From: Candidatus Thorarchaeota archaeon
GTDB lineage: Archaea > Asgardarchaeota > Thorarchaeia > Thorarchaeales > Thorarchaeaceae
Assembly (NCBI GenBank): GCA_048882325.1
Contig: JBHLRS010000050.1
Coordinates: 1 to 19,380, forward strand
Reading direction: 5' to 3'
DNA: 19,380 bases
Made by a program: the position numbers and the translations under genes. The notes below the pieces were generated by a model, which searched no databases, was not told the origin of the DNA, and worked only from the letters and a program-made list of their open reading frames with translations. This document shows positions 1 through 14,170 of the stretch, one piece after another (within the stretch, counting starts at the first letter, position 1; the number at the start of each line of letters is the position of its first letter).

Positions 1-328
1 AGATGAAGAAGGAGAACATCGTGGTGTTCAAGGCAGCTATAGCTGGAATGGAATAAGTGTAGACTATGTAATGCCCTCCAGCCGTAAAGATATTCAAGAG
101 AAGCTATCCATTCGACAGGATACAACAATCTCGTTCAGGGTGATAGGGCATATCCGCTCTGAAAAACTTCATGTAACTCTATTTTCAGGAATGAATATCA
201 TACTACACGAAGCTATCGAAACGGAGATGAAAGTTCAAGTCCCAAAGGGGACTTATCATCTTAATATTATGGCGACTTGGGAAGGACAAGGCGATGTTTC
301 GAATGTCTTTTTGATTGAGGTTGTGTGA
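1..328 (+). CDS. Hypothetical protein, 3' part only (runs in from left of window); beta-strand-rich
   Basis: Frame 2 is open from nt 2 (DEEGEHRGVQGSYSWNGISVDYVMPSS...) to TGA at 326-328, so the ORF-track start at 71 is probably internal. Alternating hydrophobic pattern (YHLNIMATW, VFLIEVV) suggests a beta-sandwich. Confidence 0.6.
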   Translation, partial: DEEGEHRGVQGSYSWNGISVDYVMPSSRKDIQEKLSIRQDTTISFRVIGHIRSEKLHVTLFSGMNIILHEAIETEMKVQVPKGTYHLNIMATWEGQGDVSNVFLIEVV

Positions 329-469: not shown

Positions 470-1579
470 TTAAGGGGAGCGATTTCGATTCCCCAGGGTT
501 GCGTTTGCTACCGATGTCACCCATTTTGCGCTGATGATGAAAGGATATACTATGCCTTTCACAAATTTCCTGAATGTCGAAGATTTTTCCATTTTTCTGT
601 TGATGGCTGGAGTAAATTGATAATAGCGGTTCAGAATCGATTCGAATGGAGCCTTGAACCTCGAATTCAAAACGATCTCATCCCTGAACTGTCGAAGATA
701 CTGCAAGTTTGAAAGCATCACTGGGAGTGATGAACTGGAAACAGTTCTTGTAATAGGACAAATACTTTTACAACTCCCATAGATAGATTGAATCCCATTC
801 TTATCATCTGTTCTTAGGGTTCGTCGTTTCCCACTATAGTAGGCATACATCACAGCTTGAGTGTCTGTTGAGTGTGATAAACCCAATATATGACCTAGCT
901 CGTGAAGAGCCACGGTAACAAGATCAAATCCAGTCGGAGGGTCATCATCAGTCCACAGTTCGTCCTCATCAAAGTGTAGTCTTCCATCTTGAGGGTAGAA
1001 AGCATGCGCTAAAACACCCCCTGGACCATCAAAGGCAGAGCCATCGCCGTGATCTCCCGATTCCCAGCTCAGACTTATATCGCCTCCAGATTTTACTTCG
1101 CTAAAACTAACACATGATTCTGAAGCCCATTGATTAAATGCATCCAGAACAGCTCTCCTCACTACGCTCTGGGCCAAGTCTGGGGTATAATTGAGGAAGC
1201 GGTACGTGAGAGCTAATTTGTCCCACTTTCTTCCACTATAGACATAATCGTCGACCTGCCCTTCAGACACCAAAAAGTCTGGGAGTCCGCATCTTGGCTT
1301 CAGCATTAGATTGATTGTCGGTTTATCAAGGATTCCTGTGACTGGTAGACTGTTAAATCGTTGGAACTCTTTGAGTGCTATTTCTGTTTTATTATCGAAA
1401 TCTTTGGGTTCTGGTTCTTCAATAGCCTTTTCTAGGTCAACTTTCACACCGAATGGTGCAACCTCGTCAGGACGAATGTAGCCAAATTTTTTGAGGTAAC
1501 CCTGTAGACGACCTACTTCGTCGCCTTTATCGCCGGTTTTTAACCCAATTTGAGTTGGTACTTCTATTCTGTTCACCAT
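470..1579 (-). CDS. Matrixin (peptidase M10A, MMP-like) with PGBD-like pro-domain, cysteine switch and C-terminal CFI-box-CTERM-like domain
   Basis: PGBD-like LKTGDKGDEVGRLQGYL...ALKEFQRFNSLPVTGILD; cysteine switch PRCGLPD (aa 95-101); structural Zn/Ca loop HGDGSAFDGPGGVLAHAFYP...HFDEDELW; HELGHILGLSH (aa 226-236); Met-turn AVMY; SD-like GGTGA at 1587-1591 on the minus strand. Confidence 0.93.
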   Translation of the reverse strand: MVNRIEVPTQIGLKTGDKGDEVGRLQGYLKKFGYIRPDEVAPFGVKVDLEKAIEEPEPKDFDNKTEIALKEFQRFNSLPVTGILDKPTINLMLKPRCGLPDFLVSEGQVDDYVYSGRKWDKLALTYRFLNYTPDLAQSVVRRAVLDAFNQWASESCVSFSEVKSGGDISLSWESGDHGDGSAFDGPGGVLAHAFYPQDGRLHFDEDELWTDDDPPTGFDLVTVALHELGHILGLSHSTDTQAVMYAYYSGKRRTLRTDDKNGIQSIYGSCKSICPITRTVSSSSLPVMLSNLQYLRQFRDEIVLNSRFKAPFESILNRYYQFTPAINRKMEKSSTFRKFVKGIVYPFIISAKWVTSVANATLGNRNRSP

Positions 1580-1803: not shown

Positions 1804-2113
1804 GTGGCTTATTTGCGATTACGTGGGCACCTTTTGGTGTCGAGTGAAATGAACAACGGTTAGAAGCGAAATCAATCATCTTTCATGCCTACAATCATGG
1901 CGTAGGTCTCTCCTCATTGTGATGCTAGTGAATATCATACAGATAGGATTGTGCTCAATCTATATCATACTCTTCCTACGTCTTGTTTGAGATAATAGAT
2001 ACCTCTGCATAGTTCGTACAGTATTGGACAACCAATAATTTGTACCCGCCTCATAATACTCACTGTAAAAAGCCTCTTACAAAAAGAAGAATTAGGCAAG
2101 GAGCCAAGTTGAA

Positions 2114-2525: not shown

Positions 2526-3347
2526 ATGGACCTCACTATGGAAAAACTAGCCAAGATGATTGATCACACTGTTCTAAAACCGGAAACAACCAGGGCAAAG
2601 ATCAAACAGCTGTGTGATGAGGCAACTATCTATGAATTTGCTGCAGTTTGTATCAATCCTATTCATGTTCCATATGCTGTGGAACTACTCAAGGATACTG
2701 ATGTGAAAGTTTGTGTTGTAGTAGGATTCCCTCTAGGTGCTACAACACCTGCGGTGAAAGCATGTGAAACAGCAGATGTTGTTGCAGCTGGTGCTCAGGA
2801 GGTTGACATGGTAATCAATGTCGGAGCAATGCGAGATGAGAATTATGACCTTGTCAAGCGTGATATACAGGCCGTAATAGAGGCTTCTGGAGACGCACAT
2901 GTAAAGGTCATTCTAGAAACTGGATACTTTACTGATGATCAGAAGGTAAAGGCATGCCTGATTTGCAAAGAAGCAGGAGCTGATTTTGTCAAGACATCAA
3001 CTGGATTTGGTCCCATGGGTGCCACCCCTCATGATGTCAAGCTGATGCGGGACACAGTTGGTCCCGATATGGGTGTCAAGGCTGCAGGTGGAATTCGCTC
3101 GTTCAAAGATGCAATTCGTGTTATCGATGCTGGAGCAAATCGTCTTGGAACCAGTGCCGGTGTAGCCATTGTGGAGGACTTTAGATGGGCTCAATACAGT
3201 GACTCTTGGATGACACCGGACAGACCATGTTGGACCTGTCCAAGTCGAATGGCGAACATGGCAAAGCAACCGAAAGAGGTCTACAAGTGGTACAAGGAAC
3301 GTTGTCTCACTTGTCCCGATAAGGAGCACAATGTGTTCACTGATTAG
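2526..3347 (+). CDS. deoC: Deoxyribose-phosphate aldolase (DERA) with extra C-terminal Cys4 extension
   Basis: [29 protein letters not shown], Schiff-base Lys in [22 protein letters not shown]. Confidence 0.97.
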
Positions 3348-13483: not shown

Positions 13484-14170
13484 ATGAGAGAGAGAATAAC
13501 TGCAGTCAGAGCTTCCATCTCTGACATCACCAATGGTACTTACTCGGATGACAATGGCCCACATGTGGTTTCTCCCTTCGGTGTCGAACTAAGGCGAGTG
13601 GTGCTTATCGGATTCGTTGTGAATAAGTTTCACAGGGATGCTGATGACACAGGTAAGAAGCGGTTTGAGAGTATAACACTGGATGATGGGACTGAAACCA
13701 TTGGAGTGAAAGTCTGGGGTGAGGATGAAGCGAATGTCCTTGAAGGAGTAAAAGAGAATATTCTGGCCATGGTGATTGGCAAGGTACGAATGTACAATGA
13801 CGAGATTCATGTAATACCCGAAGTGGTCAGAGAGTTGACCGACCCCAACTTCATGAGCCTTCATCTTATGGAACGGTACAAAGCTATTCTGAATCGTAGT
13901 GGTGTATCTCTGCCTGATACGATGGAACAACAACAGGAACTGCTGCCATCAGCTCCTGCAAAACCTGTTTCTGGAAAGCTAGCGAATGATATCATTGCGT
14001 ACGTTAGACTGGAAGCGCCTCCTGAAGGAATACCTCTGAAGGATATTGTTGCGTACTTTGAGAAGAAAGGACAGGACTCTGAGAGGACTCAGACCAAGGT
14101 CTTCAATCTCGTTGCTGAGGGTGCACTCAATGAGGTCAGTATTGGACACTTCCGCACATCAGACATGTGA
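13484..14170 (+). CDS. RPA32/RPA2-like ssDNA-binding subunit (OB fold + helix + linker + winged helix)
   Basis: RVVLIGFVV, ITLDDGTETIGVKVW, VIGKVRMYNDE, DPNFMSLHLME helix, Q/P-rich linker, WH-like IIAYVR...GIPLKDIV...VFNLVAEGALNEV...HFR. Confidence 0.8.
   Translation: MRERITAVRASISDITNGTYSDDNGPHVVSPFGVELRRVVLIGFVVNKFHRDADDTGKKRFESITLDDGTETIGVKVWGEDEANVLEGVKENILAMVIGKVRMYNDEIHVIPEVVRELTDPNFMSLHLMERYKAILNRSGVSLPDTMEQQQELLPSAPAKPVSGKLANDIIAYVRLEAPPEGIPLKDIVAYFEKKGQDSERTQTKVFNLVAEGALNEVSIGHFRTSDM

Follow-up and report, generated by a model that had tools for sequence, protein, structure and literature searches.

A predicted cysteine-switch metalloproteinase zymogen on a horizontally gained two-gene cassette in a Thorarchaeota archaeon

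A Candidatus Thorarchaeota genome encodes what is, by its sequence, a complete matrix metalloproteinase (MMP) zymogen, with a pro-domain, a cysteine switch, and a catalytic domain that match those of human MMPs. The gene lies beside that of a small beta-sandwich protein, and this two-gene cassette was gained horizontally and recently, in one Thorarchaeota species; we have very little doubt about this. Because of the distribution of the protease and the evidence for an insertion, and not because of the tree alone, we conclude that it is neither an Asgard eukaryotic-signature protein nor a relic of the ancestor of the eukaryotic MMPs. This removes a tempting false member from the list of eukaryotic-signature proteins. 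What is new here is the architecture, which combines the lack of a signal peptide with a tail that resembles CFI-box-CTERM, along with the so far unstudied partner; the M10A type of zymogen was already known. Below, the window is the whole stretch of DNA that we analysed (19,380 nucleotides), and coordinates refer to it unless a locus is named.

Domains of the protease

An earlier note, made from the DNA letters, read positions 470-1579 as an M10A zymogen with a PGBD-like pro-domain, PRCGLPD, a Zn/Ca loop, HExGHxxGxxH, and a Met-turn. Pfam and alignments to PDB structures bear this out:

470..1579, minus strand: gene for an M10A matrixin zymogen of 369 amino acids without a signal peptide (single open reading frame with an ATG start)
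1304..1525, minus strand: PGBD-like pro-domain, residues 19-92 (Pfam PF01471, PG_binding_1, E 2.5e-13; aligned to the pro-domains of proMMP-1, -3, and -10)
1277..1297, minus strand: cysteine switch PRCGLPD, residues 95-101, with C97
776..1246, minus strand: catalytic domain, residues 112-268, with predicted mature N-terminus Y112 (Pfam PF00413, E 2.4e-51)
959..1051, minus strand: structural Zn/Ca loop (aligned to MMP-1 and -8)
872..904, minus strand: catalytic zinc motif HELGHILGLSH, residues 226-236
842..856, minus strand: Met-turn AVMYA, with M244
536..760, minus strand: basic amphipathic helical tail that resembles CFI-box-CTERM, residues 274-348 (NF041770, 34.2 bits, E 1.7e-8)

The Peptidase_M10 match, at residues 118-268, covers the full Pfam model and scores 174 bits against a cut-off of 24. 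The ligands of the structural zinc (H177, D179, H192, and H202) and the residues of the calcium loop (D184, G185, G187, V189, D204, and E207), as well as HELGHILGLSH and M244, match MMP-1, -3, -8, and -10 residue by residue in the alignment. So the protease has what marks M10A (HExxHxxGxxH with the catalytic Glu, the Met-turn, the Peptidase_M10 domain, and the Zn/Ca ligands), and it has what marks a cysteine-switch zymogen, namely a helical pro-domain of 70-90 residues that ends in PRCGxPD. The top PDB matches are human zymogens: proMMP-1 (1su3, E 6e-47), proMMP-3 (1slm), proMMP-10 (9csx), and proMMP-7 (2mze/5ue2). These alignments cover the pro-domain and the catalytic domain together, with E of about 1e-46 over both. 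We conclude from these motifs that the protease is a true member of M10A and a predicted cysteine-switch zymogen. Peptidoglycan binding can be rejected as the role of its pro-domain, as MMP pro-domains have this very Pfam fold.

In a six-frame translation of the 3.6-Mb genome, PRCGxPD occurs just once, in the switch of this protease. R96, C97, P100, and D101 are unchanged across 21 close homologues, and R96, C97, and D101 are unchanged across 35 diverse ones. Across four homologues, pN is 0.17-0.25 versus pS of 0.53-0.88 in all parts of the protease, including the pro-domain. Residue 1 of the mature chain of karilysin aligns with Y112, which is nearly invariant in the homologues, so Y112 is the likely mature N-terminus. 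That the protease would be latent as a zymogen is well supported by homology, and the cysteine switch is very probably functional. Latency of this kind is established MMP biochemistry.

The earlier note did not mention the missing signal peptide, the tail, or the convergent gene for the 120-residue beta-sandwich protein. In a hydropathy scan (rather than a dedicated predictor), no signal peptide is apparent: the N-terminus is polar, with a hydropathy of 0.25, and the start codon is backed by 20 homologues, whose starts align with it to within a few residues. The scan also shows no membrane helix anywhere in the protease, tail included (maximum 19-residue hydropathy of 1.23). MMP zymogens of the animal and plant type are secreted or anchored to the membrane, and the scan shows neither trait here. 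More broadly, the mammalian zymogens (MEROPS M10A) share the pro-domain, PRCGxPD, the Zn/Ca sites, HExxHxxGxxH, and the Met-turn with this protease, but it has no signal peptide, hemopexin domain, membrane or GPI anchor, or furin-type site. In their place it has a CFI-box-like tail, and it has a gene-linked beta-sandwich partner where mammalian MMPs have TIMP.

The last 100 residues form a basic, amphipathic helical tail (15 K+R versus 4 D+E), in which C274 is nearly invariant among homologues. The tail shares its leading Cys and an LRxFRD...YY...P helical core with NF041770; it differs in having CPI for CFI, in lacking a terminal membrane helix, and in belonging to a protein without a signal peptide. 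Its score does not reach the curated cut-off for membership in NF041770 (40 bits), and the tails of nine homologues also match below that cut-off, at 32.3-39.5 bits. We classify the tail, from this profile match, as a divergent relative of CFI-box-CTERM that lies below the cut-off. About 19 database clusters have the full protease-plus-tail architecture, at 57-82% identity, and one of them is named Ca. Bathyarchaeum. A literature search on CFI-box found nothing. The AlphaFold model of the full protease has a pLDDT of 41.5.

The insertion and the distribution of the protease

The protease and its partner are encoded on a 2.26-kb insert between a small conserved gene (at 2114 in the window) and a gene for a Hef/ERCC4 helicase, which are 2.26 kb apart in this genome. 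The insert is bounded by 28-bp direct repeats:

2..328, plus strand: convergent partner gene, residues 13-120 of a 120-residue Ig/FnIII-like beta-sandwich protein
1865..1975, plus strand: remnant of an ArsB/CitMHS-type transporter, 37 codons (tblastn, 59% identity, E 8e-9)
2053..2080, no strand: first copy of the 28-bp direct repeat that bounds the insert
L003 11761-11788, about 180-210 bp before the start of the window: second copy of the repeat

The start of the partner gene is on contig C54, which overlaps the start of the window by 77 bp; the complete gene is at L003 11252-11614, minus strand. In 21 congeners the site is empty: the small gene directly adjoins the helicase gene, there is one copy of the repeat, and every position of the 28-bp element is at least 90% conserved across these genomes. 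Four other congeners have different cargo at this site, i.e., an ArsB/CitMHS transporter (G008 and G022), an amidohydrolase (G015), or an unknown ORF (G001). The transporter remnant in the window is shared with G008 and G022; the simplest account is therefore that the protease cassette took the place of older cargo once the genus had already diversified.

The site is an insertion hotspot within the genus: at least four genomes have the element duplicated, over 14-29 bp, on either side of cargo of unrelated kinds. The duplications flank the protease cassette, the ArsB/CitMHS transporter (twice), and the amidohydrolase; the insert in G001 is without a clear second copy. The element may be a shared promoter of the two divergent genes, and it would be kept twice because each flanking gene needs one copy. 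We rejected the idea that the repeat is a Xer/dif module, which would have two inverted 11-bp arms around a 6-bp spacer and a XerA-type recombinase in the host: the repeat is not palindromic. No tyrosine recombinase (PF00589) was found in this genome, which is 93% complete, while 14 of 14 control genomes were positive. In other hosts, the cassette has no repeat of this kind on its flanks.

The earlier note had offered horizontal acquisition as one of two readings, and this one has held up, given the empty sites, the single Asgard genome of 400 with the protease, and the similarity of the cassette to that of Ca. Bathyarchaeum. Over 1.6 kb, the DNA of the cassette shares 69-70% identity with that of Ca. 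Bathyarchaeum (L008) and of L091. Of the host genes around the cassette at those two loci, those that have a match in this genome have only a distant one, at about 28-50% amino-acid identity. Also, the GC content of the cassette is 0.415 versus 0.443 for the genome. The identical protease is found in the same gene context on contigs of six further records, which are up to 74.5 kb long. Because the same protein and context recur in these records, the protease is not an artefact of assembly or binning, and we rejected contamination as well.

The DeoC and the RIO kinase encoded in the window cluster with proteins named as Thorarchaeota. The protease was not found in any of the 27 congeners or 85 members of the family that we searched. 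A full-length match occurs in 1 of 400 Asgard genomes and in 1 of 41 relatives, and in each case it is this genome. The remaining Asgard matches are partial and are mostly zincins with signal peptides, which have HExxH but neither the pro-domain nor the switch. One fragment assigned to a second Asgard genome (L152, G086:C586) lies at the end of a contig and has a PGBD-like stretch and a divergent RICGTPD before an HExxH domain; it sits on a very long branch. Among species representatives, no protease was found at the thresholds we used in 401 Bathyarchaeia or 301 Nitrososphaeria, in sets that have no positive control. Phage records gave no match, and the plasmid matches are bacterial switch-matrixins with at most 44% identity. 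Asgard eukaryotic-signature proteins are expected across lineages at native loci, and this gene is in one genome of 400, at a site that is empty in its relatives. A literature search on Asgard plus MMP found nothing.

The cysteine switch beyond eukaryotes and the origin of eukaryotic MMPs

The earlier note took the pro-domain with PRCGxPD as a hallmark of animal and plant MMPs, and this part of it fails. Strict PRCGxPD is present in 83 of 116 non-eukaryotic homologues, and RCxxxD is present in 114 of them, so judging from the motif, the PRCGxPD switch is not specific to eukaryotes. A hydrophobic N-terminus is seen in only 10 of the 116, some of which are incomplete sequences. Named carriers of the switch include Actinomycetota (Nonomuraea, Microbacterium, and Actinomadura), Myxococcota (myxobacteria), Acidobacteriota (Pyrinomonadaceae), Chlorobiota (Chlorobiaceae), Bacillus (including its plasmids), Nitrososphaeraceae, and Ca. 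Bathyarchaeum. The C-terminal domains of the homologues vary and include lectin propellers, ricin-B, FG-GAP, and hemopexin. Thus many free-living bacteria and archaea have the full MMP zymogen, with both the pro-domain and the cysteine switch. The switch has been described for mammals and probably other animals, plants, and fungi, while karilysin uses an aspartate (PMC6949598). A recent phylogeny of MMPs does not mention Asgard archaea, the propeptide, the cysteine switch, or a peptidoglycan-binding domain, and so the pro-domain and switch are a character that has not been used in the debate over the origin of MMPs, for which the root is unresolved (PMC12587646). Some related switch-matrixins (L203 517-15950, L198, and L200 1579-2844) are encoded near a LodA-type oxidase, S8, M1, or M36 proteases, a patatin, or a serpin, and these neighbourhoods suggest islands for antagonism or scavenging.

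We inferred a tree from the pro-domain and catalytic domain of 70 sequences (LG+C20+F+G4), after excluding 40 long or redundant ones. The trees are without algal, fungal, or Methanosarcinaceae sequences, and several sequences were labelled as eukaryotic from sequence features rather than from their names. The protease forms a clade with the Bathyarchaeum sequence and other tail-bearing proteins (support of 100/99). The animal MMPs (97/90) lie away from it, within a group of bacterial switch-MMPs (96/90). The plant MMPs (100/100, on a long branch) are on the same side as the protease of a split with 87/85 support, and their position shifted in a quick tree, so we regard their grouping with the partner-linked, archaea-associated lineage as unstable. 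A sister position of the protease to its eukaryotic homologues was not recovered in the best tree. The approximately unbiased (AU) test rejected neither the grouping of the protease clade with animals (p 0.164) nor its grouping with animals and plants (p 0.14), and because of this the tree is suggestive only.

Could the protease nevertheless have come down vertically within the Asgard archaea and be related to the ancestor of eukaryotic MMPs, as the earlier note had considered? The host is a member of the Thorarchaeota, the protease is a full zymogen like those of eukaryotes, and the AU test does not reject the grouping of its clade with animals, with or without plants. But vertical inheritance is already contradicted by the insertion within the genus and the empty sites. 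The lack of a full-length match in the 399 other Asgard genomes (and in any congener or other family member) and, in the best tree, the position of the animal MMPs among bacterial switch-MMPs also speak against it. Parsons and Fournier also rule out that the family was inherited vertically, and they interpret the archaeal MMPs as having been transferred recently (PMC12587646). We consider this idea extremely improbable. The microbial MMPs that they described, including those of Methanosarcinaceae, are likewise sparse in archaea and due to horizontal transfer; the switch-bearing and mostly signal-less prokaryotic group, with its partner, was not described there (PMC12587646).

The partner protein and possible functions of the cassette

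The partner belongs to a family of 49 clusters, and no Pfam family scored above threshold in any of 44 members. Of 87 genomes in the order, only this one has it. In 10 loci the partner gene adjoins an M10A gene or is one gene away, and in one more it is 5.7 kb away; three of these 11 loci were chosen blind, starting from the partner. In the tail-bearing clade the partner gene is convergent with the protease gene, and in L094 and L185 the two are co-oriented and the partner gene comes first. It is also found with homologues whose tail is missing or of another kind (L185, L201, and L094), so the linkage outlasts rearrangements and swaps of the tail. The partner is absent from bacterial-type loci (fetched with flanks of about 4 kb), and no partner gene lies within 8 kb of P0218 (L203), a member of the wider protease lineage. 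The partner is under purifying selection, with pN far below pS between hosts. It has no signal peptide or membrane helix. In L184 (6535-7555), the protease is split into ORFs for the pro-domain (118 amino acids) and the catalytic domain (202 amino acids), and the partner is intact. At one locus only (L187 3565-5091), a phage-tail-sheath gene, as in contractile injection systems, is directly beside the partner and protease genes, which is a possible hint of an export route.

The partner is modelled with a pLDDT of 90.7 as an Ig/FnIII-like sandwich. The best fold match (Z of 8.0) is a generic beta-sandwich, and neither TIMP nor potempin is among the fold matches listed. The closest Atlas models are YtkA-like or Ig-like proteins of Bacillota (TM up to 0.84), with feature matches below 0.9. 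A weak search among longer proteins found no fused form. A predicted complex of the partner with residues 1-272 of the protease scored 0.60 versus 0.00 for the best control, with at least 85% contact agreement between runs and a partner pLDDT of at least 85. Of 80 solved complexes, 58 attain the mark for a complex, and so do 2 of 110 mismatched pairs. However, only 7 of the 80 solved complexes reached it with scores of 0.60 or less, as did both of the mismatched pairs, and because of this we view the score as weak support, raised somewhat by the prior linkage of the genes. Because no interface was given, the prediction does not separate an inhibitor from a chaperone or a substrate. Tentatively, the partner may bind the protease, and it is rather doubtful whether it would inhibit it.

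As a whole, we lean towards the following model: a mobile cassette for a protease that is stored in the cytoplasm and kept latent by its cysteine, along with a candidate inhibitor. The cassette landed at the hotspot between the small conserved gene and the helicase gene. By homology, a three-helix pro-domain would lay PRCGLPD over the cleft, and C97 would complete the set of four ligands around the catalytic zinc. If C97 were oxidised, or the pro-domain clipped off, the mature enzyme would result, starting near Y112. Because it lacks a signal peptide and a membrane helix, the protease most likely stays in the cytoplasm, where it is made, and storage there is probable. Its basic amphipathic tail might bring it to the inner face of the membrane. 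The reducing cytoplasm would keep it latent; once set free, through lysis, predation, or non-classical export, it would become active and could act in antagonism or in protein scavenging. The partner, which travels with this protease lineage whatever the tail, might bind the pro-domain or catalytic part as a second safety catch, much as PotA does for karilysin.

The comparison to karilysin from Tannerella forsythia, which as of PMC9890683 was the only non-mammalian MMP to have been characterised both structurally and functionally, goes only so far. Both are prokaryotic and have similar M10A catalytic domains (E 7e-39), with the mature N-terminus of karilysin aligned to Y112, and each has a small neighbouring ORF, of about 100-130 amino acids, for a candidate regulator (PMC9890683, PMC6949598). 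But karilysin is secreted, and its pro-segment, of only 14 residues, works by an aspartate switch, while this protease has a pro-domain of about 110 residues, a cysteine switch, and no export signals. PotA is a co-transcribed OB-fold lipoprotein, while the partner is Ig/FnIII-like, convergent, and without export signals. It counts against our model that in the CFI-tail clade the partner is convergent rather than co-transcribed, unlike the potempins, and that the modelled partner is a generic beta-sandwich with no known MMP inhibitor among the fold matches listed. Furthermore, the lectin-propeller, ricin-B, and FG-GAP domains of many homologues, like the structural calcium sites, point to an enzyme that works outside the cell.

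A different explanation, which we consider unlikely, is a nutritional protease that is secreted or on the surface and would digest protein in the sediment, with the CFI-box-like tail as an export or sorting signal and with the partner as a chaperone for folding or export, or a surface accessory, instead of an inhibitor. NCBIfam treats CFI-box-CTERM as a C-terminal domain, and 10 of 10 tails that we tested match it; the calcium sites of MMPs fit extracellular conditions; the partner is nearest to the YtkA-like and Ig-like models from Bacillota; and Parsons and Fournier tied microbial MMPs to animal-derived substrate (PMC12587646). But neither protein has a signal peptide or membrane helix, the tail has CPI rather than the CFI motif proper and scores below the cut-off, and the partner accompanies homologues that are tail-less or have other tails. 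The lack of export signals, together with the tight linkage, would also fit an intracellular two-part switch for signalling or defence, with the partner as a dedicated substrate or activator, and weak predicted binding fits a substrate as well as an inhibitor. Against this, the partner is compact and all-beta with no obvious cleavable linker or effector domain, there is no defence-gene context at the site, and we found no fused form (which is weak evidence). We see this second alternative as improbable.

It is less probable still that the cassette is a neutral passenger, which would be intact but which this host would neither express nor use, with a linkage that reflects co-mobilisation only. 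The very patchy distribution (including its absence from the Bathyarchaeia and Nitrososphaeria sets, which lack a positive control) and the split copy in L184 are what a passenger might leave behind. However, pN is far below pS in both genes between hosts, and the linkage survives changes of orientation (convergent or co-oriented) and of the C-terminal domain. Returning to the cytoplasmic latent protease, if it is true that the partner inhibits it, then the partner would be a third natural scaffold for MMP inhibitors, after TIMPs and PotA. A bolder conjecture, which we put forward as a long shot, is that the partner is the first representative of a new, Ig/FnIII-like class of MMP inhibitor, which would guard a widespread and so far undescribed group of signal-less prokaryotic switch-MMPs, and that this group gave rise to the complete eukaryotic zymogen twice, with animals receiving it from the bacterial branch and land plants possibly from near the archaea-associated branch.

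We also note two other genes in the window. DeoC (2526-3347) has a C-terminal extension with four cysteines (CWTC...CLTC) that is conserved in congeners and is possibly a metal-binding add-on. And beside FEN1, positions 13484-14170 encode an RPA32-like protein, with an OB-fold (Pfam tRNA_anti-codon, E 1e-5) and a C-terminal part that resembles a winged helix.
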